DNA from: Negativicutes bacterium | GTDB taxonomy: Bacteria; Bacillota; Negativicutes; UBA1444 | NCBI GenBank assembly: GCA_963665275.2 | Contig: CAXXIN010000003.1 | Coordinates: 128,001-192,000, forward strand | DNA: 64,000 nucleotides | Reading direction: 5' to 3' | Part shown: positions 21,718 to 58,106 of the stretch, piece by piece | Numbering within the stretch: position 1 is the first letter of the stretch | Layout: every line of letters begins with the position of its first letter | Notes under the pieces: model-generated | Database searches by the model: none | What the model was told of the DNA's origin: nothing | What the model saw: the letters and a program-made list of their open reading frames with translations, nothing else | Program-made: the position numbers and the translations under genes

Positions 21718-21804
21718 TAGCCGCCGCCGTTTCATCCTGTTGCCAAAATGCCCGCCGTTACTGCGATTACCACATTATCACATTATAAAGCAGTTGCTGA
21801 TTAT

Positions 21805-21853
21805 TGCCCAATATTCGGCAACGGCGCGAAATTTGGGCAGTTAAATTTGGGCA
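21805..21853. promoter_or_regulatory. Putative enhancer (bEBP-binding) boxes upstream of kamA
   Basis: tgcccaatattcggca followed by two aaatttgggca half-sites; the same motif occurs upstream of kdd. Confidence 0.6.
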
Positions 21854-21862
21854 GTCGCCTGT

Positions 21863-23066: not shown

Positions 23067-23093
23067 TGATCTCATCTCCATTTTAATTATTTA

Positions 23094-27910: not shown

Positions 27911-27931
27911 GCTTCACCTTATGCGTACAAT

Positions 27932-28972: not shown

Positions 28973-29080
28973 TATTGTCCCTCCCGTTTCAATTGGCTGC
29001 TTCGTTTTTTCCGCATACGTCAGCTTATTTGCGTCCATCTCCCCCAATCATCCCTCGGCGGCGCCCCTTTCCTGCATATA

Positions 29081-31589: not shown

Positions 31590-31625
31590 TGTGTGTTCCT
31601 CCGATATCAAAATGAATTTTGCGCG

Positions 31626-31662
31626 AAAAGAAAGCGGTTCACGAACTAACTCGCAAACCGCT
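31626..31662 (-). terminator. Riboswitch expression-platform terminator
   Basis: Minus strand agcggtttgcgag-ttag-ttcgtgaaccgct then ttctttt, between the aptamer and lysA. Confidence 0.7.
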
Positions 31663-31692
31663 ACCATGAGCATTATGATGCCCCGCAGTGCA

Positions 31693-31855
31693 AGATAGTT
31701 CTCCATACGGTTGCCGTATGACAGTTTTGCATTTATTCAATACAAAACCAGCATGGATTTCGGCCAGAAACCCATCCTTCGGCGGTTAATCCTTTCTGTA
31801 CCTGTCATCGTTGGCAACTCTGGGTACATACTCTTAGTAAGCCGCGCCCCTATCT
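31693..31855 (-). promoter_or_regulatory. Lysine riboswitch (L-box)
   Basis: Minus strand agatagGGGCGCGG...AAGAGTA...GAAAGG...CCGCCGAA...CTGG...GAATA...ACTGTC...GGAGaaCTATCT with P1 closure agatag/ctatct, upstream of lysA. Confidence 0.88.
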
Positions 31856-31926
31856 GATCCATATAATGTTGTTGTTAAAATAGTAAGCCATCACGCCCAG
31901 ACTGTCAACCCAATTTTGCTCCCGGC

Positions 31927-32880
31927 TTACCTGCTTTCCAGTGAAAACTGCCTCACGAACCAACGAACGTACCAGTGCATCATCCACGGAATAGGAATAA
32001 TCACGATGGCGGAGAGAACAAAAGCGAAAGATCGCCATAATATTTCGAGGCCGCTGCCGGTGAACACAACTTTTGCGTGAGCGCTTTCCACTTTGCTGCA
32101 CAACCAGCGCATATTGGCGGCAACGACCCAGGCCCACCCCACAATCGTGAACATCGATAATACAATCAAAACATACCAGCCGATGAACCGCCCATAACTG
32201 CCAGTAAATTTGAGCGATAATGCACGTCCATCAGCCGCTAGGCTCTCAATCACCCAACGGAAGAGGATGAGCGAAAGGTATGGATTCAGAAACAATGGCA
32301 AAATCTGAAATAACGGATTCTTAACAAGACCGATATAACCGCTTAGCGCCAGCAGAATGCACCAAACCCACTTGTCGCCGGGGTTGCCGGTAAACTCGAC
32401 TCGCGACACCCGCGGCAGCTGCAGATGGGCAACAAACCATTTGTAAAAGCTCGTAATCGCCCACGGCGCCGGCACGACCAATAGGGTCCCGAACATGAGC
32501 AGCAGGACGCGACCCAAAAGCCCCCACACACTCATGTTGGTCCCAAACGCCTGAGAAGAGAAGCGCTCCCTTTGCTGGCTGGGCATGCCGAAAACATCCC
32601 CGGCTTTGACCCACTCGGTCATCCCTTCACTGCATACCATTGCATCGCCGGTCACTTGCCCCCGCGCAATCCACTCACGCACCTGTTCTTCAGGGTAAGG
32701 CCCCGACTGCTGCCCCGCGACCGCTAGATACCAAGTTCGCGATACCGGGGGGAAAGATCCTGGCAGCGGCGGCGGTCCGGCTACCGCTCCTACTGATTGA
32801 TTGGCTGACAAATCCGTCCCACAGGAGCCGCAAAACCTCGCCGTATCCGGATTTTCTCTGCCGCAGTTTTTACAAAACAA
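31927..32880 (-). CDS. Membrane protein: zinc ribbon + GYF_2 (DUF4339) + multi-pass DUF898-like domain
   Basis: CKNCG...FCGSCG; WYLAVAGQQSGPY...WVKAGDV; repeated FTG-containing hydrophobic segments. Confidence 0.7.
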   Translation of the reverse strand: MFCKNCGRENPDTARFCGSCGTDLSANQSVGAVAGPPPLPGSFPPVSRTWYLAVAGQQSGPYPEEQVREWIARGQVTGDAMVCSEGMTEWVKAGDVFGMPSQQRERFSSQAFGTNMSVWGLLGRVLLLMFGTLLVVPAPWAITSFYKWFVAHLQLPRVSRVEFTGNPGDKWVWCILLALSGYIGLVKNPLFQILPLFLNPYLSLILFRWVIESLAADGRALSLKFTGSYGRFIGWYVLIVLSMFTIVGWAWVVAANMRWLCSKVESAHAKVVFTGSGLEILWRSFAFVLSAIVIIPIPWMMHWYVRWFVRQFSLESR

Positions 32881-33208
32881 AACTATCTCCTCCACAGTCC
32901 CATCAGTTTTCGCAGGTAATGTATAGTTATTTTCTACACAGAATTACCTTTCCCTCTTTTCAAGGCACCGCTGAAGAGCATTTCCTGGCTAAACTATTTT
33001 CGCGAATCGCATTAATGATTACGAGGATCGCATCTTGTTTTCTTTATGCAAATTCAACTTATTATGTTTTTTGCAAAAATGCTTGTTTTTTACATTTTTT
33101 AAGCTAAAAACTTCACTTTGCTCGCCAAATCTTTGCGAACAGGAGCCGTACTGCGAATATCAGTATACCCCAGGATATATTCGATAAGCCTAGGTCCGGA
33201 GCAGGATG

Positions 33209-33233
33209 TTTACACAAAATTATTGACAGACCC
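33209..33233. mobile_element. Isolated IS256-like terminal repeat at the left edge of the AT-rich island
   Basis: tttacacaaaattattgacagaccc resembles IS256-family ends; no transposase is adjacent. Confidence 0.4.
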
Positions 33234-33332
33234 TTTTACCGGTCTACTGAATGGGGGACGCCGCACAAGATTTTGTCCGCATCGCCTTGTCTGCACTTTA
33301 AGTTTGCGCTATACACGACCGCCATTGATAGC

Positions 33333-35444
33333 TTACTTTTTAATAATTACCAATCCATCTGCAGCAACAACACCCCTACCTCTTTCGTAAACAAACAATG
33401 GATTTATATCCATCTCAACTAATATATCTTTGTTCGCAACTGCAAAATTACTAATAGCCACCAAAGTAGTAGCCAGCGCCTCAATATCCAATTCTGCTTG
33501 TCCCCTATATCCGTAAAATAGAGGAGCTGCCTTTAGTGAACCAATCATTCTTAACGCTTCTTTATTATTAAATGGTGCTGGGTATAAAGACATGTCTTTG
33601 AATACCTCTACAAATATGCCACCAATCCCTACTAATACCATAGGTCCAAATTGCAGATCGTTCTTCACTCCTATAATAACTTCCATTGCATCCCTGGAAA
33701 GCATTTCTTGAATTAAGATGCCGTTAATTTTCGCATCGGGTTTGTGTTTCTTTACACTCGACAATATTTCATTGTAATATTTTTTAACATCATTGATATT
33801 ACTGATGTTTAGTTGTACTCCACCTACATCAGACTTATGAAGAATGTCTGCAGATTCAATTTTCAAAACTAAAGGGAATCCTATTTCATGGGCAATTTTT
33901 TCGGCTTCTTCTTCACTCATGGCTATTGCTTCTTTTGTGACAGGAACACCAAATTGTTTTAAAAGTTCTTTTGAATTATGTTCTGATAATGCAATTTTTT
34001 GACCTTCCATAACTTTGGGTGACGCTATTGTTAATGTCCTTGATTCACATGTTTGCACCCACTGTGAATAATTCAAGATATATTTAATAGTATTGCATGC
34101 GTAAACTGGCGGTGGCAAAACTGGAACCCCTACGTCAGCCAATCTGTCAATATATTTCTGTACTCTACCTGACTCCACAGATGGCATTACGGCAATAGGT
34201 TTCTTATTTCCACCTTTCATAATCTTTTCTATACCTTGAGTCATACATTCAACCGAAGGACTTAATAACTCTTCATCCGGTCCTATAGTCAAGCCAATGA
34301 TCATCATATCCACATTATTATCAGACAAAACCAACTTCAATACCGATGCGTAAACATCCGCATCATAGCAAACCGTTGCGGTCGTATCTAATGGATTATT
34401 GGGAGTCGCATAATTTGGTAAAATATTTTTCAACTTTTCAATAGTTTTCTGTTCAAAGTCAGGAAATTTCAGTCCGGCTATTGTGCCCATATCCGCACAT
34501 ATAGTTGTTTCACCACCGGAAACATTAACAGCGGTAAAAGCATTCCTAGATGGAAGCGAAGGCATTAGCGCCAGCGATGTCGTTACCGCTATCAGTTCTT
34601 CAATATCATTCACGCGAATTACGCCAAATTTAGAGAATATCGCATCAAACACTTTATCCGATCCCGACATACTCCCCGTGTGGGATGCAGCAAGCTGACT
34701 TCCTTTTTCCGAACGCCCCGCTTTTAAGATAACCACTGGTTTCTTTTGATGGGCAGCTTTTTTGAGTGCACAAGCAAATTTTTCTGGTTGGGACACCCCT
34801 TCTATATAAGCTGCTACCACTTTGGTATTTTCATCCTCAACTAAAAAATTTAAGTAATCTTCTATTTGAACAATTTTGCTATTACCAGAAGAAATCAAAT
34901 ACGAAAATCTAGTCTTAGGGCTATCATACATTGACTGACAAATCTGGCCGCTCTGTGCAACCAAACCGATTTTCCCGTTATTCTTGCGACCTCGTAATGT
35001 AAAGCCAAATGAAAATATTTTATCTATGAAGTTAACGTATCCCGCACAATTCGGACCCATTAATGCAATATTTAATTCATTGCACAATGCTTTCAAATCC
35101 ATTTCTGCTTGCTTGTCTTCTTCTCTTCCCGTTTCACCATAACCGCTCGCATAAACAACAGCTCCACCGGCTCCTTTTTTAGCCGCTTCTTTTAACAACT
35201 CTACTACCGTTGATTTCGGTGTTGCGATAATAATCAAATCAATATTTTCTGGAATGTCCGAGATAGCATGATATGTCCGAATTCCAAATACTTCATCGTG
35301 CTTAGAATTCACTAAATATAAGTCGCAAATTCTTTCTTTACATTGCTCAATGAATATTTTAACCGTTAATCCACCTAAACTTTTCTTCTCGTTGGCCCCA
35401 ACTATTACAACTTTGCGCGGCCTTAGCAATTTATCCAAATCCAT
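33333..35444 (-). CDS. ADP-forming acyl-CoA ligase (acetate-CoA ligase family, fused subunits)
   Basis: GPNCAG, AQSG, phospho-His SHTGS, NPLD, ATP-grasp HKSDVGGV, FGPMV, EMDINPL. Confidence 0.9.
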   Translation of the reverse strand: MDLDKLLRPRKVVIVGANEKKSLGGLTVKIFIEQCKERICDLYLVNSKHDEVFGIRTYHAISDIPENIDLIIIATPKSTVVELLKEAAKKGAGGAVVYASGYGETGREEDKQAEMDLKALCNELNIALMGPNCAGYVNFIDKIFSFGFTLRGRKNNGKIGLVAQSGQICQSMYDSPKTRFSYLISSGNSKIVQIEDYLNFLVEDENTKVVAAYIEGVSQPEKFACALKKAAHQKKPVVILKAGRSEKGSQLAASHTGSMSGSDKVFDAIFSKFGVIRVNDIEELIAVTTSLALMPSLPSRNAFTAVNVSGGETTICADMGTIAGLKFPDFEQKTIEKLKNILPNYATPNNPLDTTATVCYDADVYASVLKLVLSDNNVDMMIIGLTIGPDEELLSPSVECMTQGIEKIMKGGNKKPIAVMPSVESGRVQKYIDRLADVGVPVLPPPVYACNTIKYILNYSQWVQTCESRTLTIASPKVMEGQKIALSEHNSKELLKQFGVPVTKEAIAMSEEEAEKIAHEIGFPLVLKIESADILHKSDVGGVQLNISNINDVKKYYNEILSSVKKHKPDAKINGILIQEMLSRDAMEVIIGVKNDLQFGPMVLVGIGGIFVEVFKDMSLYPAPFNNKEALRMIGSLKAAPLFYGYRGQAELDIEALATTLVAISNFAVANKDILVEMDINPLFVYERGRGVVAADGLVIIKK

Positions 35445-35564
35445 TTTATATCATCCTCCGGAACAATCTATTAGTATTCTTTGGCAAGTTAATCCATGGT
35501 GGAAAAGCCTTAAAAATCCACCCTTCACGTTCTGTTTTACCAATTGCCCCCATAAGGGATCACA

Positions 35565-36551
35565 TTAATGTTCTTTTTGGGTTACGCCATTGACTATGTA
35601 ACACTTCTCATATTCACCTTTTAAATAAAAAAGAATATTTTCTGCTGATTGTGTTTTGGCATCGCGCACAGATGACAAAGAATAAAACGCCACATGGGGC
35701 GTAAGAATAACATTGTGCCGTCCGCATAAAGCATTATTATTCAAATCCGGATGTTCATCCACTAGGACATCTAACGCTGCAAAACCTACTTTACCTGAAT
35801 TAAGTGCATTCACCAATGCATTCTCGTCGATTATGCCCCCTCTTGATGTATTTATCAAAACAACTCCATCTTTCATTTTCGCAAAAGCTTGAGTGTTAAG
35901 CGTTTTTTCAGTATTTTTATTTAGTGGCAAATGGCAACTAATATAATCGGCTTTTTCATAAAGCTCATCTAATGTTACCAATTTCACACCACACTTATCT
36001 GCGTCTTCCGAGGAAACGAATGGATCGTAAGCAATAATTTCAGGGCCAAAACCGTTCAGTCTTTTGGCTACCAACTTGGAGATATTCCCAAAGCCCAACA
36101 AACCTATGGTACATTCACAAAATCTCGTCATGTTTGGGCAAAGATCAAACTTCCAAGCTTTGTTTTGCTGAACACTTGTATTAAATTGAACAAGCCTTCG
36201 ATTTATGCAAAGCATCAAGGCAACCGTATGGTCTGCCACTTCATTTATACAATACTGAGGAATGTTGGTAACAGCGATATTTCTTTTTTTTGCATCATTC
36301 AAATCAACAGAGTTAAAACCTATCGACTTAAATGATAATATTTTTAATTTCGGCAATTTTTCCATCACTTTATCAGTAAAAGGCTCATAACAACAGATAA
36401 CTGCATCCGCATCCTTACAGTTTTCTATCAGTTCTTCTTCAGTTTTACATGGTATTTTTGCTATTTGTGCAAAATCTCCAAATACTTTTTCTTCTTCATC
36501 CAAACCACCCATTGAGTTAAAAGTAAGAATAACTTTTTTCATGGTGCGCAT
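35565..36551 (-). CDS. D-isomer-specific 2-hydroxyacid dehydrogenase
   Basis: GLLGFGNI, INTSRG, ALDV..E, TPHVAFYS. Confidence 0.88.
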   Translation of the reverse strand: MRTMKKVILTFNSMGGLDEEEKVFGDFAQIAKIPCKTEEELIENCKDADAVICCYEPFTDKVMEKLPKLKILSFKSIGFNSVDLNDAKKRNIAVTNIPQYCINEVADHTVALMLCINRRLVQFNTSVQQNKAWKFDLCPNMTRFCECTIGLLGFGNISKLVAKRLNGFGPEIIAYDPFVSSEDADKCGVKLVTLDELYEKADYISCHLPLNKNTEKTLNTQAFAKMKDGVVLINTSRGGIIDENALVNALNSGKVGFAALDVLVDEHPDLNNNALCGRHNVILTPHVAFYSLSSVRDAKTQSAENILFYLKGEYEKCYIVNGVTQKEH

Positions 36552-36646
36552 CTCCTCGATAAGATTTATACGACTTGACTCAACTCGGAAAATCGGTCTT
36601 AGTACAGCAATAATGCGCTACAAACTGCATATAAGGATTCCGTGTT

Positions 36647-37189
36647 TTACTTAGCGATACAATTATATCCGGCATCAAATGCGTCCACATTTTTCGCATT
36701 ATATTTGCCTTTTCCGTGATCTTCAAAATACTTACATATTGCATCCAAGCATATTTCTTTATCAAAAAGGTTAGTTGCTTTAACCAAAGCGCCTAACATG
36801 ACTAGATTGCTGCCATGAATATTACCAACTTTTTCCGCCAATGAATTGGCTCCAACTTTCACCACTCTTATTTCTTTTCTATACTGTTTATTTTCTTCAA
36901 CTAAGTCAGAGTTCACAAATAAGTATCCGCCAAGGTTTACCTTTTTCTCAAATTTATCTATTGCCAACTCATTCATCGTAAAAAGGATATCAAGATTCTT
37001 AATGTAAGGACTGGCTATTGCCTCGTTAGAAAATTTCACACTACAATTTGCTGTTCCCCCTCGCATTTCAGAACCATAGGAAGGATACCAGCATACATTC
37101 ATTCCACTGGCTTTTGCCGCATGAATCAACATCATGCCAGCGGTAAGCACACCTTGTCCACCATATCCAGCACAGATAATTTCAGTCAT
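36647..37189 (-). CDS. 2-oxoacid:ferredoxin oxidoreductase gamma subunit
   Basis: AGYGGQG, PSYGSEMRGGTANC, NLVMLGA. Confidence 0.9.
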   Translation of the reverse strand: MTEIICAGYGGQGVLTAGMMLIHAAKASGMNVCWYPSYGSEMRGGTANCSVKFSNEAIASPYIKNLDILFTMNELAIDKFEKKVNLGGYLFVNSDLVEENKQYRKEIRVVKVGANSLAEKVGNIHGSNLVMLGALVKATNLFDKEICLDAICKYFEDHGKGKYNAKNVDAFDAGYNCIAK

Positions 37190-37932
37190 ACTATTTGTCT
37201 CCCTCCATCGATGAATTCACCGATGTCATAATATGAGCATAGTTCTTCCTTTATTCTTTTCATCGAATTCACTGGACTCATATTCCAGTTTGTCGGGCAA
37301 GGCGCCAACAGTTCCACCAAGGAAAACCCTGCATTATTCATTTGCTTTTCAATCGCTTTTCCTAAATATTTTTTACAGTTTCTAATTTCATTTGCGTTAT
37401 GCATGGATCCCCTTGCCAAATAAGCGATATTCAATTTCCCCATTACATCGACAATATCAAAGGGTTTTCCTGTTTTTTTAGCATTTCGTCCAGATGGAGA
37501 AGATGTTGTCTTCTGCCCTTCCATAGTTGTAGGTGACATTTGTCCGCCGGTCATTCCATAAACGCCATTATTTACTACCACTACCGTTACGTTATTATTG
37601 CGAAGTGCTGCATGCATTGTCTCCGCTAACCCGATCGAATAAGCCGCGCCATCTCCTACATATACTATTGAGGGATTAAATGGCCGTACCGATTTTACGC
37701 CTACTGCAACAGCAACATCTCTACCATGCGCGCTCATAATTGTATCTACATTCCACGTCTTCCATTGCATACAACCACATGCGACATCTACCGTTATTAT
37801 GGCCTTATTAATTAAGCCCATTTCTTCCAATACTTCTACTAATAACCTGTTAGCTATGCCATGTCCGCACCCAGGACAAAATCTTGTTGTTTCAGCTATT
37901 AATAATCTATTGGGAGCTTTTACTGCGGCCAT
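37186..37932 (-). CDS. 2-oxoacid:ferredoxin oxidoreductase beta (TPP-binding) subunit
   Basis: FCPGCGH, HGR, GDG...NNGVYGMTGGQMSPTT, PCPTNW. Confidence 0.9.
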   Translation of the reverse strand: MAAVKAPNRLLIAETTRFCPGCGHGIANRLLVEVLEEMGLINKAIITVDVACGCMQWKTWNVDTIMSAHGRDVAVAVGVKSVRPFNPSIVYVGDGAAYSIGLAETMHAALRNNNVTVVVVNNGVYGMTGGQMSPTTMEGQKTTSSPSGRNAKKTGKPFDIVDVMGKLNIAYLARGSMHNANEIRNCKKYLGKAIEKQMNNAGFSLVELLAPCPTNWNMSPVNSMKRIKEELCSYYDIGEFIDGGRQIV

Positions 37933-37933
37933 T

Positions 37934-38998
37934 TTATAACACTTCCTTTGCTTTTCCCGCGAGAATGTCTTTAGCAAATTGAATAATATTTTCCGTCTCC
38001 GGCGCAATAAATGAATTTCCATAGTAATAAACCGGATACTTGCATTTCGTTGCAACTTTTACATCATCAACTAATTGACCCAATGCGTTCATTTCCACAG
38101 TCATCAATGCTTTACAAGCATCTGACAATGTTGCAAATGCTTTTACTGGAAACGGAAACAATGTAATAGGTCTGATTAGCCCTAATTTTATGTTTTGGGA
38201 CCTTGCCAATTTGACAACTTCTTTTGATATTCTCGAGCTGATACCATACGCCACCATGACTACTTCAGCATCTTCAACGAGTATGCTTTCCCATCTTTGC
38301 TCAGTATCATTCATCGACTGATACTTTTCTCTGAGTCGATTGTCATAATCAGCTTCCACATAAGAAGTGTTCGCAATTACTTTGTGTGGTTCATCATCTT
38401 TTGCGCCTTTTACTGTCCACTCGAATTTATCAATGTCATGTTCCTGCATTGCAGGCAGCTTTACGGCCTCTACCATTTGCCCGATAGCCGCGTCTGATAA
38501 GACAATGACTGGATGCCTGTATTTTTCCGCAAGATCAAAGGCTTGATAAACAAAATCTGCGTTTTCCTGAACCGAGTTGGGTGCTAATACAATGACTCGG
38601 GTATCTCCGTGTCCATTTCCTCTTGTCACTAACCAGTAGTCACCTTGCCCTTGCTGTATTTCACCCAGGCCATTTCCGCATCTAGCAACATCAACCAATA
38701 CGCAAGGAAGATCCGCGGCTACCAAATAGGAAATCCCCTCTTGCATTAGCGAAAACCCTGGCCCTGATGATGATGAAAGAGCTCTTGCGCCTGTCGCTGC
38801 AGCACCATACAACATATATATCCCGGCAATTTCCGATTCGGATTGTATGAACGTTCCTCCAACCTCATCCATTCTCCATGATAGATATTCCAATATTTCT
38901 GTTTGCGGAGTTATTGGGTACCCGCTAAAAAATCTACACCCAGCCCTTAAAGCCGCTTCAGCCAAGGCCTCATTGCCTTTCATTAATACTTCAGTCAT
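37934..38998 (-). CDS. 2-oxoacid:ferredoxin oxidoreductase alpha subunit (VorB-like)
   Basis: MKGNEA, GYPITPQ, QSESE, SSSGPGFSLMQEG, RPITLFPFP, VEMN. Confidence 0.9.
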   Translation of the reverse strand: MTEVLMKGNEALAEAALRAGCRFFSGYPITPQTEILEYLSWRMDEVGGTFIQSESEIAGIYMLYGAAATGARALSSSSGPGFSLMQEGISYLVAADLPCVLVDVARCGNGLGEIQQGQGDYWLVTRGNGHGDTRVIVLAPNSVQENADFVYQAFDLAEKYRHPVIVLSDAAIGQMVEAVKLPAMQEHDIDKFEWTVKGAKDDEPHKVIANTSYVEADYDNRLREKYQSMNDTEQRWESILVEDAEVVMVAYGISSRISKEVVKLARSQNIKLGLIRPITLFPFPVKAFATLSDACKALMTVEMNALGQLVDDVKVATKCKYPVYYYGNSFIAPETENIIQFAKDILAGKAKEVL

Positions 38999-39032
38999 TT
39001 TTATTTCCCTCCGTTAGAATAATCTCATTACT

Positions 39033-39233
39033 TTACTGTAAAATCTCGAATACATAGTCAGGACACACGGTATAACATGTTCCACAACCGATACATATTT
39101 CTTCATCCACTTTAACCACTTTAAATCCCTGGTTGTTCTTATTCTCCGATACAGATATCGCATGTACTGGGCAAGCTCCAATACAGTATTGACAGGTTTT
39201 ACATCTTTCTGTATACAATTTCACCTTTGCCAT
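39033..39233 (-). CDS. 2[4Fe-4S] ferredoxin-like delta subunit
   Basis: CKTCQYCIGACP and CIGCGTCYTVCP. Confidence 0.9.
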   Translation of the reverse strand: MAKVKLYTERCKTCQYCIGACPVHAISVSENKNNQGFKVVKVDEEICIGCGTCYTVCPDYVFEILQ

Positions 39234-39262
39234 TGTATTTATCTCCTCCTTCAAAATCCAAT

Positions 39263-40711
39263 CTATATAGCTGCATCTAATTTTTTCAGGGCAATTGCTT
39301 TTTCTTGGTCAGTTAATTTACGAATACCAATTCCGGTAACAGCATAAAAGACAGCAAATAAGGGTCCTAAATATGAAAGCATGGCCCATATGGCATATCC
39401 TTGATTTCCATAAATCGGCACTCCAAAAGTTGCAACATAAAACACAGCAGATAGACTCCAGGGAATCAGCGCCCCCATTTCCGTTCCAATATCCTCTAGG
39501 CATCTTGATAAAACACGCGGGGCAATCCCAAGTTCGATATATTTTCTTCTGAACATTTCTGGAACTAGTATAAATGCGATATATGCGGAGCCTGTCGCAA
39601 GCATAATGAGTAATACCATGAGTAATGTTGCCAAGATGACATGCATCTGTGTTTTAACCTTACTGGTAACGGGGTATAAAACTACATCAAGAAAACCAGC
39701 CTTACTTATTATTGCGGCGAAAGCATACCCGCAAAATACTATCAACACTACATCAGCCATAGAAAGCATTCCACCGCGATTAAGAATTCTTAATATTTCC
39801 GGGGCAACATTTCCTTTAAATGCCATTGTAGTTTTAAATCCACTCACTGTAGAGGCAAACCCATCCACTAATGAAAATCCTTGATAAAACAGCCCCAATC
39901 CTAATGCCGCAAGAATCGCAATAAAAAGGGTTGGTACGGGAGGTTTCTTTGTAACTGCTCCAATTATGATAATGACGAACGGTATCAATAATAAAATGCT
40001 CCATTGATACATGCTATCTAAAGATGCTAACATGCTTAACGTGGATTCAGGTATACCAACGCTTCCGGACGTCATATACTGCTTTCCCGCGATGAGATAA
40101 ACAACGCCAGCGATTATTGTTGGTGGAATCGTAGTCCAAAGCATAGATTGAATATGATCATATATATTTGCTCCTGAACAAAGAGGCGCAAAGTTAGTAG
40201 TTTCTGAAAGAGGCGACAATTTATCCCCAAATATTGCTCCTGCTATTACCGCCCCCACTGTAATAGGCAACGACACTCCTAATCCTTGAGCGACTCCAAC
40301 GAAAGCTACTCCTGCAGTCCCCGCCGAACTCCACGAACTTCCGGTACAGGTAGAAAATACCATGCAAGTTATAAACGCAGAAACTACAACATATGAGGGA
40401 TTGATCAATTTTAATCCATAATAAATTATCATGGGAATTGAACCCGAAAATATGAATGTTCCAATAACCATCCCAATGCACCATATTAGAATCAATACTG
40501 AAGTTGTTTTTCCCATTCTTTGAGATATTGCTTCTTCCAATTCATCCCACGTATACCCCAGTCTCAACGCTGCTATTCCAGCAATCATAGTCGCAATACA
40601 AAGCAACATCTCGGTTTTAAGTCTAAGAACCAAAGTTCCAACTATAATAATCATCAAAGAAATACCTGTTACACATAGGGATTGATTAAATGACGGAATC
40701 TTTTTCCCCAT
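39263..40711 (-). CDS. NhaC-family transporter (probable amino-acid/organic-acid carrier)
   Basis: TGSSWSSAGT, GAIFGDKLSPLSETT, LSRCLED, LIPW. Confidence 0.85.
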   Translation of the reverse strand: MGKKIPSFNQSLCVTGISLMIIIVGTLVLRLKTEMLLCIATMIAGIAALRLGYTWDELEEAISQRMGKTTSVLILIWCIGMVIGTFIFSGSIPMIIYYGLKLINPSYVVVSAFITCMVFSTCTGSSWSSAGTAGVAFVGVAQGLGVSLPITVGAVIAGAIFGDKLSPLSETTNFAPLCSGANIYDHIQSMLWTTIPPTIIAGVVYLIAGKQYMTSGSVGIPESTLSMLASLDSMYQWSILLLIPFVIIIIGAVTKKPPVPTLFIAILAALGLGLFYQGFSLVDGFASTVSGFKTTMAFKGNVAPEILRILNRGGMLSMADVVLIVFCGYAFAAIISKAGFLDVVLYPVTSKVKTQMHVILATLLMVLLIMLATGSAYIAFILVPEMFRRKYIELGIAPRVLSRCLEDIGTEMGALIPWSLSAVFYVATFGVPIYGNQGYAIWAMLSYLGPLFAVFYAVTGIGIRKLTDQEKAIALKKLDAAI

Positions 40712-40965
40712 TTTGACGCACTTCCTTCTTAAAACTCTGAAATTAATTATCTCGCATTAATCGCTCGATTCAGAAGGCATTATATATTTTCCTGTGCGAT
40801 CTACCCTAAATGATGAGTTCTGCTGTGAGTTTTTTTGTTTTGCGTTAGTGTCGATTATTATTGAATTCTTTGATCAACTATCTAATCGATTGTTCAGCAG
40901 TAGGTAGTGCCAAGTGTATATACATGCATGCTTGACAGTACCTACTACATCTAAACTACCGACTA

Positions 40966-41964
40966 CTAGAACATTTTATCGTTTTCCATAAGTGTTAAGT
41001 CTTGCCCAATTTCTTTTTCTACCGCTTTCTTGTAAATCAGAGAGGCAAGAGCAACATCATCAATGGCCATCCCAATATTAATAACCAAAAAACGTTCCTT
41101 ATCATTTACTCTGCCAGCTTTTTTATGACTAACAATATCACCAATTTCTGCGTACAAATTAGGGGGTGCGGCAAACGCTCCTGCGGCAGTCTTAAGCCAG
41201 TAGGAAGTCTGTCCCCAATCGTCAGTGACAAATTTATCGATACTTTCGATAACATCTTTGTTAAATGCGCGAGCAGCTTCCAGTCCACATGCGCAAACCC
41301 CTTCTTTGAGCCATTCAAAAGGAATAAAAGGTTTTTTAAGATTTTCAGTTGCCGTCAACACAAAGTCTGATTTTCGTATTGCCTCCTCCGTTTCAACATT
41401 TGTAATTACCTCAATTCCTGTTTTCTCACTAATATATTTTGCAAATCTAACTCGTGTATCTTCATTTAGATCTTGTGCATACACTCTTTTAAGTTTTGGC
41501 ATTACCGCATGTAACATTAAAGCATTTATCGTTCCTTGAACACCAGTTCCAATAACCGCAAGAGTTTGCGAATCTTTTTTAGCGCAATATTTAGCTGTGA
41601 TAGCTGTCATTGCAGCAGTTCTAGCAGCAGTCAACCACCTACAATCCATTACAGAAAGTGGCATTCCTGTTTCACAATCATTTAAGATCATTAGCCCCGC
41701 TATGGAAGGCAAGTCAATCTTACCATTTTCTGGATAACCACTAACCCACTTCAATCCACAAATATCTTGGTCTTTTATCCACGCAGGCATAGCATGAATA
41801 AATGCTCCATCCCGAGTATGTATCCCGGGTTTAGGAGGCATCTCAATTTGTTTATTACTATGAGCAACTAATCCCTTTTCGACTACATCAATAATCTCAT
41901 TGATAGATATATCTAACCCCATAATATCCTCTTGCGATAAATACCTAAAATCAACTTTTTTCAT
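40966..41964 (-). CDS. Ornithine cyclodeaminase / mu-crystallin family protein
   Basis: MPPK, HAMPA, GLKWVSGYPEN, LTAARTAA, IGTGVQG, GMAIDD. Confidence 0.88.
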   Translation of the reverse strand: MKKVDFRYLSQEDIMGLDISINEIIDVVEKGLVAHSNKQIEMPPKPGIHTRDGAFIHAMPAWIKDQDICGLKWVSGYPENGKIDLPSIAGLMILNDCETGMPLSVMDCRWLTAARTAAMTAITAKYCAKKDSQTLAVIGTGVQGTINALMLHAVMPKLKRVYAQDLNEDTRVRFAKYISEKTGIEVITNVETEEAIRKSDFVLTATENLKKPFIPFEWLKEGVCACGLEAARAFNKDVIESIDKFVTDDWGQTSYWLKTAAGAFAAPPNLYAEIGDIVSHKKAGRVNDKERFLVINIGMAIDDVALASLIYKKAVEKEIGQDLTLMENDKMF

Positions 41965-42011
41965 ACAAACTTCTCCTTTCACTTTTTGCAATGCTCAAGA
42001 TATCAAATACA

Positions 42012-43451
42012 CTAAATGACCTGACTTGTCTCAACGTTCGCATCAATAACTTCTGAGCCATTATTCGCAACAATCTTCTCTGTAAAAATTCCGAGGTAAG
42101 CATAGACAACTACCAAAATTACCGCGATCCAATGGCTAAATATATACGGCATGTATTCATACCATTGAACACCCAAGGCGCCAAGCACAACCAAGCAACC
42201 TCCACTCCAAGGTACATAAGCTCCGCTGTAACAGCACATTTCTAATACAGACCGAGAAAGGTTCACTTTTTTCAACCCTGCTTTTTCATATGCGGGAGCG
42301 TACATCCTGCCATTAAGAATCATGCCCACATAAACACTGCTAGACAAATACACTGTTAATTGGCTTGTTATCAGTGATGTTAATACCAATGGGCCCGGTG
42401 AAGCAGTGATTGATTTCAGTTTGTCCACTAGCACTTCCAATACGCCAATACGCTCGACGACCCCTGCAAAAATAAACGCGCATAATAGAATTAAAACAAG
42501 GCTCATCATTGCAGATAACCCGCCACCACTTAAGAGCTTATCGATCGACTTCATGCCCGTAGACATCGCGTTACCATTGTAGAGGATAGCCAGCATTTTT
42601 CCCACTGGGACTCCTTGCATTACTACTGCCAGTACTGCACCCAAAAGCACTCCAATACTCAGGACTGGTAGAATAGGCTTTTTCTTGAAAGCAAGATAAA
42701 CAACCACAACCGGTGGCAACAGTAATATAATATTCAAATTATAAGTCGTCTCTAATGCCGTCATGATCGGATTAAGACTGGATACGTCAGCATTACTACT
42801 ACTTTGAAAGAAAAACCCAATCACGCCATAAAGAACCGCGGCTGCCACCGCTGCCACTCCAGAAGTTGGTATCATACTGGTTACAAGCTTTATGATGTCA
42901 GTTCCCGTAACAGCCGCAGCAAGATTAGATGAATCCGACAAAGGACTCCATTTATCACCTAAAAACGATCCAGCCACTATCGCCCCTGCTGCTATGCCGG
43001 TAGGAACTCCTAATCCTTGAGCAACACCCAATAACGCAACGCCAAATGTTCCCACAATCGCCCAAGATGAACCCGTAGCCATAGAGGCGGCTGACGTCAA
43101 TAGGAATGCTGTTACTAAAAACACTGACGGAGTCAACAGTTTTAATCCCCAGTAGATAATGATTGGTGTTGTTCCCGAGGCTAACCAAGACGCGGTAATT
43201 AGGCCCACCATAAGCAAAATCAATATTGCTGGCATCCCTATTTTAATCAAATTCAGTATACTTTCTTGGATCTCATCCCACGTGAATTTCAAAATCATCA
43301 TTCCGTATGTCGCCGCTACAATACCGCAAAGAAGAACTGACATTCCAGTTGGAATCTTCCATACGATTGCTCCCAAGCACATAATTCCCACGAATGAACA
43401 AAGTAGAATTACCGCTTCATTGAAATATGTAAGTCGTTTTTGCTCTCCCAT
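42012..43451 (-). CDS. NhaC-family transporter (second paralogue)
   Basis: TGSSWAIVGTFG, GSFLGDKWSPLSDSSN, LSRSVLE, YVPW. Confidence 0.85.
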   Translation of the reverse strand: MGEQKRLTYFNEAVILLCSFVGIMCLGAIVWKIPTGMSVLLCGIVAATYGMMILKFTWDEIQESILNLIKIGMPAILILLMVGLITASWLASGTTPIIIYWGLKLLTPSVFLVTAFLLTSAASMATGSSWAIVGTFGVALLGVAQGLGVPTGIAAGAIVAGSFLGDKWSPLSDSSNLAAAVTGTDIIKLVTSMIPTSGVAAVAAAVLYGVIGFFFQSSSNADVSSLNPIMTALETTYNLNIILLLPPVVVVYLAFKKKPILPVLSIGVLLGAVLAVVMQGVPVGKMLAILYNGNAMSTGMKSIDKLLSGGGLSAMMSLVLILLCAFIFAGVVERIGVLEVLVDKLKSITASPGPLVLTSLITSQLTVYLSSSVYVGMILNGRMYAPAYEKAGLKKVNLSRSVLEMCCYSGAYVPWSGGCLVVLGALGVQWYEYMPYIFSHWIAVILVVVYAYLGIFTEKIVANNGSEVIDANVETSQVI

Positions 43452-43480
43452 TATTTCCCCTCCTTCTTTTTTGAATTCAT

Positions 43481-43500
43481 AGTGTATACACTTAGTATAC
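43481..43500. promoter_or_regulatory. Putative GntR operator
   Basis: Palindrome agtgtatacact plus adjacent gtatac; another tgtataca at 43741..43748 before the gntR gene. Confidence 0.55.
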
Positions 43501-43783
43501 GCAAAAAAACGGATAAGTCAATATATTCTACTAACTTATTGAAATATTTATGTCAATCTCTAATCGTCTACTAATCAAGGTTTACTGAGTGACAATAGTG
43601 AAGCAGAAGACTGTATTATCTAGACCATTTTATGTTACAATTGCTACAAATTATTTAAACTCGCGCAGTTGTTTCTACTACTAATAGAAACGAATTTAAT
43701 ATAGAGCTTTGCTTTTATGTTTTAAAATTAATATACTTAATGTATACAAATCAATATTACGCATATTATAGGAGGAGAACCAA

Positions 43784-44464
43784 ATGGAAAGTCATTTTCA
43801 TAACGAATTATCAATTTATCATCGTCTAAAAAATTCTATTTTGAAACAAGAATACGGACCCAAAGAAAGATTAGTAGAATCAGTAATCGCTGAAAAATTC
43901 GGAGTTAGTCGGACTCCTATACGAGAAGCTTTAAGAAAGCTTTCGTATGAAGGTTTGGTCGATATTATCCCAAACCAAGGAGGTGTTTTTGTTGCACAAC
44001 CAAGTTTAGAAGAAATGATCCAGATTTTTTCTTGTCGAATGCTTATTGAAAGAGAAACAACAAAAAAGGCGACTCAAGCTATTACGTCAAAAGATATTGA
44101 ATGCTTAGAAAAGATATCAGAGCGGCAGCGAGAAATTTACATGGGAAATAAAGTTTTTTCCGAATTTTTCGATAACAATATCGAATTTCATATGATAATT
44201 GCAAAGAAATGCAACAACATATACTATATTAAATATTTAGAAGAACTATTAAATAGAGGCAATCTTTATTTACTATTTTTTGACAAATTTCAATCTACCA
44301 ATTTGGATGAATCATTGGCAGTAAAAGAGCATTCCAGAATTATTAATGCATTAAAGGCAAAGAATATCGATGAGAGTGGAAATGCAATGTATGATCATAT
44401 TAAAACAACATATCTTAGCCTGTCTCGAAGCATGTTGGAATTAATGGGTCCATCTTCTCTATGA
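43784..44464 (+). CDS. GntR-family (FCD) regulator, divergent from the island operon
   Basis: ERLVESVIAEKFGVSRTPIREAL; FH..I and EH..II in the FCD domain. Confidence 0.9.
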   Translation: MESHFHNELSIYHRLKNSILKQEYGPKERLVESVIAEKFGVSRTPIREALRKLSYEGLVDIIPNQGGVFVAQPSLEEMIQIFSCRMLIERETTKKATQAITSKDIECLEKISERQREIYMGNKVFSEFFDNNIEFHMIIAKKCNNIYYIKYLEELLNRGNLYLLFFDKFQSTNLDESLAVKEHSRIINALKAKNIDESGNAMYDHIKTTYLSLSRSMLELMGPSSL

Positions 44465-44664
44465 CATCCAGCCTTGAATGAATGAGTTAAAAACTACAAC
44501 AAAACAGGTGCCCAGGTCGCTATAAAATTGAGCCACTAGGCTCGCATGGTTCGTCGATTTGCTGAATCTTTATCAAGGAAACTGGTACATTTCCGCGAGT
44601 AGTAGTAGCTGGTTCAACAAAGAATTTAAGGACAGACCTCAAACCAAGCCCTATCCGGGGAACG

Positions 44665-44983
44665 CGCCGGAACATCGTTGTTGCCCCGAAAGTGCTTAAG
44701 GCGTTGCAGCAATATGGTTAGCCAGGAAATGTGCGCGAGTTGCAAAGTATTTGTGAAAGTGCTATCAGTTTGACCGATTCAGACGCCCTCACTTTGGCCT
44801 ATCTTCCCGAAGAAATTTCAAGCAACGATTAAATCCGGCCGTCATTTACCTGCAACTCCGTCTTTGCCAGCTTAAAATTCAAATATCATTCGCGAGCGGC
44901 AACGCCAGCGTTGCTGCCCGTGAGCTTGGAAATTCCCGCAAAACACTTTTCCAAAGATGCAGATATGAGACCACAAAACGTAA
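44665..44983 (+). pseudogene. Decayed C-terminal half of a sigma54-dependent activator
   Basis: ALQQYG*PGNVRELQ (W replaced by a TAG stop) and, in another frame, the Fis HTH GNASVAARELGNSRKTL. Confidence 0.7.
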
Positions 44984-45036
44984 ACGGGGCTATCTCAATG
45001 CAGGGTTTCAGCCTGATTGAAACAGCCCCGTTTTTT
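44982..45036 (+). terminator. Terminator-like hairpin after the activator remnant
   Basis: aaacggggct...agccccgtttttt. Confidence 0.55.
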
Positions 45037-45090
45037 ATTATAACGATAATCACCACTAAAATCGCATTTATACCAAAACACCGAATTTCG

Positions 45091-46428
45091 GATAGTGTCA
45101 AATAATGTTCGCAAAAATCATCGGCACTTCAGCTTGGTTAAGCAGCCGCATCGAGTTTTTGCTGGATCTCTGTAATGATCATGGGATGAATATAAGATCG
45201 CCCGCTAGACCAATCCTCGCTGTATTCAATCAAGTAACTGGTTACTAGGCGAACATAGGAATCCATACTCGGGAAGATACCGACCACCTTTGTTCGACGC
45301 CGGATTTCCTTGTTTAGCCGTTCCAACAGATTAGTGGATGAGATTTTTCGCGAGTCGATTTCATTGAAACTGAAAAACTGCAGCGATTCTTCCAGACCGT
45401 CTTCCAATGTGGCAATCGCTTCCGGATATCTTGTTTCATAATCGTCCATCAGAGACGCCGCATATTTTTTGGCGCTGTCATAGTCAGGCTGGAGCCAGAT
45501 TTGCTTGAGTTTTTCCGCAAAGGTTTTCTTTTCCCGGCTGGATATATGGGCCAAGATATTTCGCATGAAATGGACTTTGCAGCGTTGCCAGGCGCAACCA
45601 ACGAAGGATTCCCTCACGGCTTTGACCAGCCCCTTATGCGCATCCGATACAACCAACCAGACCTTTTTTACTCCCCGGGCTTTGAGATTGTCGAACAGTT
45701 GGGTATACGTGGCGGCGGATTCCTCAACCATCGGTTCAATCGCCAGGATATCGCGTTTGCCGTCGCAATTAATGCCTGTAACTACCAGGACCGCCATGTT
45801 TTTAACACTATGGTGATCGCGGATACGTTCATACAGGGCATCCACCCATAGAACCGGATAGATCTCTTCCAACTGGCGATTGCGGAAGGCTTCAACTTGT
45901 TCATTTAATTCTTTGGTGATGGCCGAAACCTGACTGCGGGAGATGGAGTCGATCCCCAAACTTTTGGTGAGTTTGTCGATTTTCCGTGTCGATACGCCGT
46001 TTACATAGGCTTCCTGAATGACGTTCATCAAAGCGGCTTCGGATCGTTTTCTGGCTTCCAGGAAGAATGGGATATACCCGCCATTTCGGATCTTGGGCAC
46101 CATCAGATACATTGTCCCCATTCGCGTGTCAAATCGCCTGACTCGATAACCTGAGCGATATCCCTGGCGAGTTTGGGTTCGCTCTGATTTTTGGGCTTCC
46201 AGCTTGCCGTCCACTTCGGCTGCCATGAGTCGTTCGCAGAGCCACTTGAGCATTTCCTGCATGGGATCGTCGTCTGCCACAAATTTCATTAGCATTTTTT
46301 CAAAAGGTACGGTAGAATTTTGGTAAACCATCGGCGCTACACTCCTTTTGGGTTTGCTGGACACTTACCTTTTCGGAGTTGCCGATGGTTTTTCCTATTC
46401 TCTTTTGCGAACTTTATTGTACGCTATC
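45091..46428 (-). mobile_element. Complete IS256-family insertion sequence (1338 bp)
   Basis: 26-bp imperfect inverted repeats (gatagtgtcaaataatgttcgcaaaa / gatagcgtacaataaagttcgcaaaa, 22/26) and 8-bp target duplication gaatttcg at 45083..45090 and 46429..46436. Confidence 0.92.
45138..46331 (-). CDS. IS256-family transposase
   Basis: GVSTRK, WVDA, VSDAHKGL, WQRCKVHF, STNLLERLNKEIRRRT. Confidence 0.95.
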   Translation of the reverse strand: MVYQNSTVPFEKMLMKFVADDDPMQEMLKWLCERLMAAEVDGKLEAQKSERTQTRQGYRSGYRVRRFDTRMGTMYLMVPKIRNGGYIPFFLEARKRSEAALMNVIQEAYVNGVSTRKIDKLTKSLGIDSISRSQVSAITKELNEQVEAFRNRQLEEIYPVLWVDALYERIRDHHSVKNMAVLVVTGINCDGKRDILAIEPMVEESAATYTQLFDNLKARGVKKVWLVVSDAHKGLVKAVRESFVGCAWQRCKVHFMRNILAHISSREKKTFAEKLKQIWLQPDYDSAKKYAASLMDDYETRYPEAIATLEDGLEESLQFFSFNEIDSRKISSTNLLERLNKEIRRRTKVVGIFPSMDSYVRLVTSYLIEYSEDWSSGRSYIHPMIITEIQQKLDAAA

Positions 46429-46602
46429 GAATTTCGGCAATGATAAAATGCAAAATTAGACTGGCGTTGACAATTATTTCTCCTTAACGGTTTGTTTCGA
46501 GCCTGCAGTTGCTGAATTTTGCGATAGAATTAGTTTATTTTACCACTATGTCTATGCGCGTCCAGAAGCGCGTTATTTCTTCTCGTAGTTACCCAAGTGA
46601 GC

Positions 46603-46635
46603 AAAAAATTCCTTCTGCATCGCCACAGAAGGAAT
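46603..46635 (-). terminator. Terminator after gntR
   Basis: attccttctg...cagaaggaat with a T-run on the minus strand. Confidence 0.6.
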
Positions 46636-46669
46636 CAAATGGGTTTTTCCTATTGATGCAAATAAACGC

Positions 46670-47317: not shown

Positions 47318-47404
47318 ATCATCTAACCATTCCCTTTCGGTCATCCCTAATTTTAAACGCTTGTTTATGACTTTCTATCCAAGATTTTATCTGCTTCTTA
47401 TCGA

Positions 47405-58105: not shown

Positions 58106-58106
58106 T

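Follow-up and report, generated by a model that had tools for sequence, protein, structure and literature searches.

The question raised by this locus is whether a run of minus-strand genes with a divergent regulator, in a 64-kb window of a Negativicutes bacterium, encodes a single fermentation route for an amino or imino acid. The window is the whole stretch analysed (64,000 nt; assembly GCA_963665275.2, contig CAXXIN010000003.1, positions 128,001 to 192,000), and all coordinates are positions within it. The block contains two NhaC-family transporter genes (NhaC1 and NhaC2), a gene encoding an enzyme of the ornithine cyclodeaminase (OCD)/mu-crystallin superfamily, the genes of a 2-oxoacid:ferredoxin oxidoreductase (OFOR), and genes encoding a D-2-hydroxyacid dehydrogenase (D2HADH) and an acyl-CoA synthetase (ACS). 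An earlier note, made from the letters of this DNA, had listed this gene set in this order on the minus strand, with a divergent GntR gene and no aminotransferase. Open reading frame (ORF) listing and family scans find each of these genes, all intact, in the order NhaC1-OCD-NhaC2-delta-alpha-beta-gamma-D2HADH-ACS (33333-43451), and the family scan matches no aminotransferase family in the block. We give slightly better than an even chance to the reading that the block is a horizontally acquired, GntR-controlled cassette, in which a substrate would be taken up, oxidised to a 2-oxoacid by an NAD-linked enzyme and converted to acyl-CoA with a final yield of ATP.

Gene content and control regions of the block

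The features of the block are the following:

33226..33247, minus strand: terminator-like hairpin, 86 nt past the ACS stop (consensus scan)
33333..35444, minus strand: ACS, fused alpha-beta ADP(NDP)-forming acyl-CoA synthetase, 703 aa (PF13380, PF13607 and PF13549)
35565..36551, minus strand: D2HADH, D-isomer-specific 2-hydroxyacid dehydrogenase (PF02826 and PF00389)
36647..37189, minus strand: OFOR gamma (PF01558; TIGR02175 PorC_KorC, 83.0 against a cut-off of 81.1)
37186..37932, minus strand: OFOR beta, binding thiamine pyrophosphate (TPP) (PF02775)
37934..38998, minus strand: OFOR alpha, VorB subfamily (NF005507, 458.4 bits against a cut-off of 399)
39033..39233, minus strand: OFOR delta, 2x[4Fe-4S] ferredoxin (two CxxCxxCxxxCP motifs in the translation)
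39263..40711, minus strand: NhaC2, NhaC-family transporter, 482 aa (PF03553)
40712..40965, minus strand: gap between OCD and NhaC2, 254 nt, with a strong hairpin and a promoter-like site (fold and consensus scans)
40966..41964, minus strand: OCD/mu-crystallin superfamily enzyme, 332 aa (PF02423, E 1.7e-60)
42012..43451, minus strand: NhaC1, NhaC-family transporter, 479 aa (PF03553)
43452..43783, no strand assigned: divergent control region with two TGTATACA sites (palindrome scan)
43784..44464, plus strand: divergent GntR+FCD regulator, FadR-type (PF00392 and PF07729)

OFOR alpha and beta abut, beta and gamma overlap by 4 nt, and the spacing is 47 nt between NhaC1 and OCD and 29 nt between NhaC2 and delta. 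Wider gaps of 95 and 120 nt flank D2HADH, and the widest lies between OCD and NhaC2 (254 nt). The OCD start is placed nine codons inward of the longest ORF, since 10 of 10 close homologues begin MKKV, MEKV, MQKI or MERV. The start of OFOR beta is set to the ATG at 37932; the longer TTG ORF would overlap alpha. The true start of D2HADH may be its second Met, because homologues have 322-325 aa.

ACS shows the CoA_binding_2, Succ_CoA_lig and ATP-grasp_5 domains on one chain, which is the arrangement of NDP-forming acyl-CoA synthetases, and it is the sole copy in the host genome (G000; one match in the genome search). It scores under all NCBIfam equivalog cut-offs (acetate model, 444 bits against 1200; 4-hydroxybutyrate model, 431 against 1300), and its closest solved structure is 8wzu, a 4-hydroxybutyrate-CoA ligase (ADP-forming; E 2e-103). 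D2HADH contains both the catalytic and the NAD-binding domain of D-isomer-specific 2-hydroxyacid dehydrogenases and is also under the equivalog cut-offs (phosphoglycerate dehydrogenase, 233 against 454; D-2-hydroxyacid dehydrogenase, 187 against 389); its relatives carry the NCBI names 'C-terminal binding protein' or phosphoglycerate dehydrogenase family. The OFOR has separate delta, alpha, beta and gamma genes and its alpha subunit passes the VorB cut-off, which places it among the four-subunit VOR-type enzymes. The solved chains closest to alpha are the 2-keto acid:ferredoxin oxidoreductase 1yd7 (E 2.5e-59) and the 2-oxoglutarate synthase 8ys5 (1.3e-53); the four-subunit pyruvate:ferredoxin oxidoreductase (PFOR) 9bt4 is remote (E 4e-17). 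On the NhaC model TIGR00931 (cut-off 370) NhaC2 scores 410.7 and NhaC1 369.2, and both miss the cut-off of 650 of the ArcD arginine/ornithine exchanger model NF052307 (243.7 and 297.4, respectively). The regulator shows an N-terminal GntR winged helix and a C-terminal FCD domain, as in the FadR/FCD subfamily.

Operators of FadR-type GntR regulators are palindromes with a GT...AC core. For TGTATACA, the 64-kb window shows three matches where 0.37 are expected: at 43483-43490, covering part of the -10 hexamer of the promoter-like site that ranks best ahead of NhaC1 (43521-43494), at 43741-43748, 36 nt before the GntR start, and at 39210-39217, inside the first codons of OFOR delta. The OCD-NhaC2 gap contains a hairpin (about 40883-40965, fold z-score -2.66), whose loop holds the 10-nt variant TGTATATACA (40915-40924), and a weak promoter-like site (40884-40857); the promoter scan as a whole is at chance level, with 39 sites against 39.1 expected. 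In the groundwater run X6, described below, this gap shows deletions of 4 nt and 7 nt. From these features the gap may be an internal control point.

Among 82 loci, TGTATACA is found in 10, two of which are copies of the window and two the same place. It lies in the control regions of four independent relatives: L001, both ahead of the SSF transporter gene following GntR and just within its start; L004, before OCD; L019, twice before the GntR-OCD genes; and L072, with one site ahead of GntR and two preceding the MFS-OFOR-ACS genes. This distribution fits control of both halves of the block by the FadR-type GntR protein, with the palindromes as putative operators. The SSF transporter was considered as a link between the two halves and discarded, the copies in L001 and L072 being just 29% identical.

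No terminator-like site is present in the intergenic gaps; outside genes on the minus strand, the only one follows ACS (33247-33226). This hairpin is weak evidence on its own, because the region shows 12 such sites against 8.8 expected; from its position it is likely the end of the transcription unit.

Conservation of the block and of its two parts

GC content is 0.385-0.406 across 34-44 kb against 0.45-0.55 on either side. The genus comparison includes 11 congeners, in none of which the OCD gene is found: the closest of their proteins reaches 34% identity to the OCD protein, and any match at E<=0.001 is found in seven of them. OFOR alpha is 49-50% identical to a resident VOR-like paralogue, which is common to all 11. 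The block is an acquired low-GC island, and its distinct composition together with its recurrence as a unit in other samples exceeds what a chance run of genes would show. An empty site is not shown in the 11 congeners by DNA searches with both flanks, in which matches are fragmented and poorly syntenic; the closest congener, G006, is 87-97% identical in the flanks and is assembled in 710 contigs. Directly to its right, past the GntR gene, the island is flanked by this element:

45090..46440, minus strand: IS256-family element with its transposase at 45138-46364 (NF033543, 362 bits against 150)

The end repeat of this element is present at seven further places in G000, as in a multi-copy element, and the depth of its contig is 4-5x that of its neighbours. 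To the left of the island, a 62-nt stretch (33173-33234) overlaps the terminator-like hairpin and matches, at 90-91%, four contigs of congener G010 over their first 80-140 bases, as a repeat end would; no second copy of it is found in G000, where it is single-copy.

Contigs from three metagenome runs of three studies, two on groundwater (X6 and X8) and one on sediment (X7), were placed on 31500-47500. They cover 33475-44482 at about 92-96% identity, with NhaC2 in X7 at about 79%, and leave the left flank (31500-33100) uncovered. Single records bridge the junctions: X7 record 18 (35758-36706) joins D2HADH to gamma, X6 record 13 joins beta to alpha, and X6 record 14 (4605 nt) spans alpha-delta-NhaC2-OCD-NhaC1. 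X7 record 22 joins NhaC1 to GntR and then continues into about 1.5 kb of unlike sequence, so the flank differs in those samples. At a greater distance, one source with a longest contig of 20,972 nt is common to the homologues P0002 (OCD, 82%), P0123 (ACS, 76%) and P0242 (D2HADH, 77%), and a contig figure of 9,302 nt is shared by P0122 (ACS, 77%) and P0243 (D2HADH, 77%), which suggests a further copy of the block at about 77-82% amino-acid identity. The block is conserved as a unit at close range and not at long range. The earlier note had set its reading against the case of genes that are not conserved together; conservation of the whole holds in the three runs at about 92-96% identity and fails among distant relatives, where none of 59 loci with an OCD homologue shows ACS or OFOR.

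These 59 loci include 33 under 5 kb and 18 of 10 kb or longer. In L001 and L032, an NhaC1 orthologue (61-64% identity) directly adjoins OCD (59-60%), and NhaC1 is a conserved partner of the OCD gene. A GntR match is present in eight of the 59 loci, and the GntR of the island is 45% identical to the one beside OCD in L001. When six phylum flanks were extended, one locus (L078 in G196) showed a distant OFOR (25-35%) near a 41% OCD homologue.

The other half of the block was followed in a sample of 400 genomes of the phylum, in which an ACS match at E<=1e-100 occurs in 47 genomes besides G000; the five best (46-54% identity) were fetched. All five show OFOR genes directly upstream of ACS, in the order delta-alpha-beta-gamma in four, and the fifth contig stops inside gamma. 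L073 (G137:C31) contains a divergent GntR-FCD gene, an ELFV-family dehydrogenase, OFOR, ACS, MFS and NhaC transporters and an aldehyde dehydrogenase. L075 (G336:C152) contains IclR, OFOR, ACS, an ELFV dehydrogenase and an amino-acid permease. L072 contains MFS, OFOR (alpha 70% identical to that of the island), ACS, an SSF transporter and a divergent GntR-FCD gene, and L074 contains IclR, OFOR and ACS, with a lactate permease, Ldh_2, a LarA-like protein and a D2HADH a few kb off. An ELFV dehydrogenase and a transporter thus take the place of OCD and NhaC in two of the four readable loci. At 376-382 aa the ELFV proteins of L073 and L075 are short, and their relationship to solved glutamate dehydrogenases is distant (best E 1.6e-38), so they appear to form an uncharacterised clade. 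As judged from these loci, OFOR-ACS is a conserved unit whose entry enzymes are apparently interchangeable, and the logic of the earlier note, a dehydrogenase giving a 2-oxoacid for OFOR and ACS, recurs here with other entry enzymes. On gene content, the block is a fusion of two modules found apart elsewhere, NhaC1+OCD(+GntR) and OFOR+ACS.

An unlikely alternative is that the two modules are unrelated and simply lie side by side on one mobile island, with no metabolite passing between them. NhaC1-OCD under GntR would then carry out one step on an imported compound, either reducing a ketimine or pyrroline-2-carboxylate (Pyr2C) to an L-imino acid or oxidising an amino acid to a central 2-oxoacid, and NhaC2-OFOR-D2HADH-ACS would convert an imported D-2-hydroxyacid or 2-oxoacid to an acid and ATP. 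The separate occurrence of NhaC1-OCD and OFOR-ACS elsewhere agrees with this, as do the hairpin and promoter-like site in the 254-nt gap, the role of OCD as the sole enzyme of its module in L001 and L032, and the surroundings of OFOR-ACS in L074 (lactate permease, Ldh_2, LarA-like protein, D2HADH), which look like hydroxyacid entry. However, the composite is intact in three samples at about 95% identity and probably in the 77-82% copy too, it lies on a single strand with no terminator-like site between genes, and one type of palindrome is found before NhaC1, as a variant in the OCD-NhaC2 gap, at the start of delta and upstream of MFS-OFOR-ACS in L072.

The OCD-family enzyme, its substrate and the proposed route

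The PF02423 match of the OCD protein covers profile positions 7-313 of 314, all NCBIfam equivalog cut-offs are missed, and the Protein Atlas yields just generic OCD, alanine dehydrogenase (AlaDH) and SbnB cluster names. Residues are numbered on the 341-residue ORF, and the superfamily-defining residues, taken from Watanabe et al., 2014 (PMC4141209), were mapped through the alignments with solved relatives. The Arg/Lys-Lys-Arg-Asp substrate and catalytic set corresponds to K54, K81, R124 and D312, the Rossmann motif is G148-T-G-V-Q-G153 and the NAD-marking Asp is D174. All of these (K54, K81, R124, D312, G148xGxxG153 and D174) are kept in the protein and in 28 aligned relatives, as expected of superfamily members. 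The best solved relatives are TlLhpI 6t3e (1e-43), AfAlaDH 1omo/1vll (1e-42) and SbnB 4m54 (2e-39). According to the same source, the residues E56-D228-K232 (P. putida numbering) that make up the cyclisation triad correspond to R52-D219-K223 for AfAlaDH and to L52-V224-A228 for TlLhpI (PMC4141209). In the OCD protein the triad positions read H66-E238-A242 by the AfAlaDH alignment, and the TlLhpI alignment gives a gap and A240; the triad Lys is missing under either alignment, the first position is His, and the acidic position is Glu, not Asp.

The H-E-A triad and the missed family cut-offs indicate that the OCD protein is neither a plain cyclodeaminase nor a standard archaeal AlaDH. A plain ornithine cyclodeaminase making proline, with unrelated neighbours, was the case that the earlier note had held against itself, and we regard it as highly improbable: the Pfam family name and the weak matches of both NhaC transporters to the arginine/ornithine exchanger model are what speaks for it, but those transporters miss the ArcD cut-off of 650 (297, 244), the OCD equivalogs are missed by wide scores (PRK07589, 112.4 against 350; PRK06407, 49.6 against 337), the E56-D228-K232 triad is not kept, and the solved ornithine cyclodeaminase 1u7h is the eighth-best relative (E 2.5e-13 against 1e-43 for the best).

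Alanine fermentation has a textbook counterpart for every step, with OCD as an archaeal-type L-AlaDH, OFOR as a pyruvate oxidoreductase, ACS as an acetyl-CoA synthetase and D2HADH as a D-lactate dehydrogenase. The archaeal L-AlaDH model TIGR02371 is indeed the best NCBIfam match of the OCD protein, and 1omo/1vll are among its best solved relatives (E about 1e-42), but the score of 182.8 bits misses the cut-off of 409.15 and the R52-D219-K223 positions of AfAlaDH read H-E-A. This reading is improbable also in view of OFOR alpha, which passes VorB and is nearer to 2-oxoglutarate and 2-keto-acid enzymes (E 1e-53 to 1e-59) than to PFOR (4e-17), and of a standard AlaDh_PNT-family protein already present in the window at 12660-13856.

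A maximum-likelihood tree of 37 rows places the OCD protein of the window in a 20-row clade with support 98/95. Neighbours were scanned for 11 of these 20 rows, the rest being database proteins without a fetched locus. The clade shows GntR-FCD regulators (window, L001, L004, L008, L034 and L077), NhaC transporters (window, L001 and L032), octopine-dehydrogenase-family genes (L034, 54% identity; L008, 48%), amino-acid binding proteins (L004 and L008) and glycine-reductase-type genes (L047) as neighbours; none of these types is seen in L003, a metagenome-assembled genome of Bathyarchaeota, and the L033 scan is uninformative. A separate 13-row clade (100/100) contains homologues beside proline-racemase-family, DAO and aldehyde:ferredoxin oxidoreductase (AOR) genes (L078-L081), a neighbourhood that is, by its gene content, the signature of predicted (hydroxy)proline routes. 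The loop at the OCD Asp228 position is G-L-E-A-x-R/K-A in the clade of the window, x-V/I/L-D-F-D-S-Y in the proline-racemase clade and P-V-H-H-R-G in a third small clade; His66 is common to all three. Relatives at 45-61% identity are found in Clostridia, Aminobacterium, Bathyarchaeota and many metagenomes.

Two further groups of loci were observed among the OCD homologues. L080 (G072:C17), L081 (G159:C15) and L078 (G196:C55), from one family of the phylum, contain OCD, proline-racemase-family, DAO-type and tungsten-type AOR genes, a set suggestive of an anaerobic route for (hydroxy)proline or D-proline in which AOR takes part. The metagenome contigs L044, L045 and L048 contain 41% OCD homologues beside an EamA transporter and a glycyl-radical enzyme with its activase, and also carry a RACo-like protein fused to an FCD domain.

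TlLhpI, the nearest characterised relative, acts oxidatively on L-proline, on N-methyl-alanine and on L-amino acids whose side chains are hydrophobic, and is also a Pyr2C reductase (PMC4141209). The signature of a TlLhpI-type Pyr2C reductase is not seen: the island has no proline-racemase-family (LhpH) or DAO-type gene, and only the third triad position (Ala) agrees. The Pyr2C/piperideine-2-carboxylate (Pip2C) reductase model is missed (124 against 322). The N-methyl-alanine dehydrogenase activity of TlLhpI (PMC4141209) also touches on an opine reading, in which the substrate would be an N-(carboxyalkyl) amino acid and the OCD enzyme, like SbnB and the sponge tauropine and strombine dehydrogenases, would oxidise its secondary amine; the 2-oxoacid would go to OFOR-ACS or D2HADH, and the free amino acid would exit via NhaC2 or be fermented by the host. 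Two transporters would suit such an exchange of substrate and product, L034 and L008 of the 20-row clade adjoin octopine-dehydrogenase-family genes and others adjoin amino-acid ABC binding proteins, and the SbnB model (TIGR03944) is among the three best NCBIfam matches, with 4m54 among the four best solved relatives. The SbnB cut-off is missed, however (175.8 against 326.9), the family scan finds no octopine-dehydrogenase or FAD opine-oxidase gene in the island, and the NhaC-linked loci L001 and L032 have no opine gene nearby, all of which leaves the opine reading with a low probability.

The substrate itself can be named only by class. A hydrophobic, branched or aromatic side chain is our tentative first choice, by analogy: the OFOR is VorB-type, and the C. 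difficile ligase in the same kind of cluster uses arylacetates. Four-subunit VOR-like OFORs of Peptostreptococcales often adjoin a PF13607 ADP-forming ligase, and the ligase beside C. difficile 'Cd3c' acts on phenyl-, hydroxyphenyl- and indole-acetate, according to Jiang et al. (PMC13285125). The same paper states that assays of the ligase are far simpler than those of the OFOR and can show which substrate is used. Alanine, 2-aminobutyrate or another small neutral amino acid seems rather unlikely. The same small weight is given to a route to a dicarboxylic product (for example 2-oxoglutarate, formed from glutamate or an opine), which is suggested because OFOR alpha is nearer to the solved 2-oxoglutarate enzymes than to PFOR and octopine-dehydrogenase genes are neighbours in the clade. 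A basic or cyclic imino acid (ornithine, lysine, proline, pipecolate) ranks no higher than these, and a slightly larger, still small, weight is kept for something else.

In the favoured cassette reading, the island would turn an alpha-amino or imino acid, possibly N-substituted, into a carboxylic acid, with ATP formed by substrate-level phosphorylation. The GntR/FCD protein would repress through TGTATACA-type palindromes and be released by the substrate or its 2-oxoacid. NhaC1 would import the substrate, as its conserved pairing with OCD suggests, and the OCD enzyme with NAD+ would oxidise the C(alpha)-N bond, giving an imine that hydrolyses to the 2-oxoacid. The VOR-type OFOR, to judge by its family, would convert this 2-oxoacid to acyl-CoA, CO2 and reduced ferredoxin, provided that metabolites flow to it from OCD; the ADP-forming synthetase, by its family and its conserved pairing with OFOR, would then yield ATP and the free acid. 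D2HADH would reduce part of the 2-oxoacid, thereby recycling NADH, or feed in a D-2-hydroxyacid, and NhaC2 may export products or swap product for substrate. That the G-L-E-A-x-R/K-A clade represents a new kind of NAD-dependent dehydrogenase, acting on an L-amino acid or an N-substituted one, and that the cassette is self-sufficient and mobile among groundwater and sediment anaerobes is a possibility we consider doubtful.

Several points weigh against this reading. No ACS or OFOR match appears in any of the 59 OCD-homologue loci, 33 of which are under 5 kb, and five genomes with OCD relatives, the two nearest included, have no close ACS orthologue (best 42%, C-terminal third). Two transcripts are possible because the 254-nt gap with its stable hairpin and promoter-like site parts OCD from NhaC2; on these features, two transcripts under one regulator would be as likely as one. 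The contig-matching argument for the 77-82% copy is indirect. The kinetics of TlLhpI strongly favour the reductive direction (PMC4141209). The role of D2HADH is ambiguous, the NADH-recycling branch being one of two it may have, and its relatives (41-43%; E<=1e-70 in four of the 400 genomes) are in unrelated contexts, with a TRAP transporter, KDG kinase and aldolase, and a LarA-like protein, or with HMGL-like, Zn-ADH and M24 peptidase genes as neighbours.

If true, the cassette would join transamination and ELFV-type dehydrogenases as a third entry to the oxidative branch by which anaerobes ferment amino acids, and the oxidative ATP-yielding branch of Stickland type would start without aminotransferase or glutamate dehydrogenase. 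It would give a physiological role to a sizeable unnamed OCD/mu-crystallin clade and be a clear case of two modules combined into a complete ATP-yielding catabolic route that spreads as a small island. Easy to express, the enzymes of the island make a good, cheap enzymology target, with no surprise in principle.

G000 shows eight [FeFe]-hydrogenase domain matches over the cut-off and no RnfC match over its cut-off, and the host [FeFe] hydrogenases could take up the reduced ferredoxin passed to them. The window carries lysine fermentation genes and several peptide ABC systems, so the host is read as an amino-acid fermenter. The lysine set lies on the minus strand at 20409-29047 and contains a radical SAM protein resembling lysine 2,3-aminomutase (20409-21623), a beta-keto acid cleavage enzyme (21863-22792) and the beta and alpha subunits of D-lysine 5,6-aminomutase (23094-25432). 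Next come a PAS-domain sigma-54 activator (25386-27083), an ORF without assignment and a protein similar to Zn-dehydrogenases (27932-29047). The AlaDh_PNT-family dehydrogenase at 12660-13856 closes a five-gene oligopeptide ABC operon (12660-19389), with a PhzF-family isomerase upstream (19597-20394); its family would suit an alanine dehydrogenase as well as an opine-synthase-like enzyme. At 55683-63236 the window encodes all parts of a 2-oxoacid dehydrogenase complex (E1 alpha and beta, lipoyl E2 and E3), which has a separate GntR-FCD regulator and is accompanied by a PCC-domain protein, a radical-SAM protein and a lipoate-protein ligase.

Comparison with known systems

The route of OFOR and ADP-forming ligase is known from archaea. 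Peptide fermentation of Thermococcales uses an aminotransferase and glutamate dehydrogenase, then POR, VOR, IOR or KGOR, and then ACS I or II. The island shares with it the conversion of 2-oxoacid to acyl-CoA and then to acid and ATP through OFOR and an NDP-forming synthetase. In Thermococcales the genes are scattered and deamination is by transamination, whereas the island would use a single NAD-linked OCD-type enzyme, lies in one bacterial block and has its synthetase as a fused chain.

The opine regions of Agrobacterium Ti plasmids carry ocd, with ABC transport, FAD opine oxidases, a true cyclodeaminase and aerobic metabolism. They share with the island the character of a mobile catabolic block with an OCD-family gene, transport genes and a regulator; unlike the island, which is fermentative, they contain neither OFOR nor ADP-forming synthetase. 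SbnB and the tauropine and strombine dehydrogenases belong to the same superfamily and use N-(carboxyalkyl) amine substrates. SbnB is the fourth-best solved relative of the OCD protein, but the family cut-off is missed and the island has no SbnA-like or opine gene.

Within the OCD/CRYM superfamily, the island enzyme shares the substrate and catalytic positions and the NAD-type Asp with TlLhpI (subfamily 1) and AfAlaDH (subfamily 2), as these are described in PMC4141209. The specificity positions differ: H-E-A in the island, L-V-A in TlLhpI (Thermococcus litoralis) and R-D-K in AfAlaDH (Archaeoglobus fulgidus). The context is NhaC and GntR, not a proline-racemase-family gene, the homologues linked to proline racemase and DAO form a separate clade, and the clade of the island enzyme has a G-L-E-A-x-R/K-A loop of its own.

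The nearest counterpart of the second half is in the Stickland-type clusters of Peptostreptococcales, such as C. difficile 'Cd3c' and the HpdDEFG/HpdJ/HpdK tyrosine pathway of C. scatologenes (PMC13285125, accessible text). In the island, a PF13607 ligase lies two genes downstream of OFOR gamma, which fits the cluster type described for Peptostreptococcales, a PF01855 OFOR and a PF13607 ligase in one gene neighbourhood. These clusters show the same delta-alpha-beta-gamma layout (D+E+F+G), a VOR-like group, an adjoining PF13607 ligase and an acyl-CoA route giving ATP and reduced ferredoxin; in the accessible text they are described without an OCD-family entry enzyme, NhaC transporters or D2HADH, and their 2-oxoacid is formed from the amino acid by an enzyme that this text does not name (PMC13285125). 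The earlier note knew of no described operon with this composition. No description of an operon with OCD, OFOR and ADP-forming ligase was found in the literature searched, most subscription journals and the supplements of PMC13285125 being outside its reach, and the claim stands for the whole composition; it does not for the bacterial pairing of OFOR with an ADP-forming ligase, which is in print for Firmicutes (PMC13285125), so that only the OCD-type entry step is undescribed. What appears new, on the genes compared here, is that the entry step seems to belong to an OCD enzyme from a clade without a name, that this enzyme is constantly paired with NhaC and GntR, and the fusion of both modules in a small island, a fusion that is found in several anoxic habitats.

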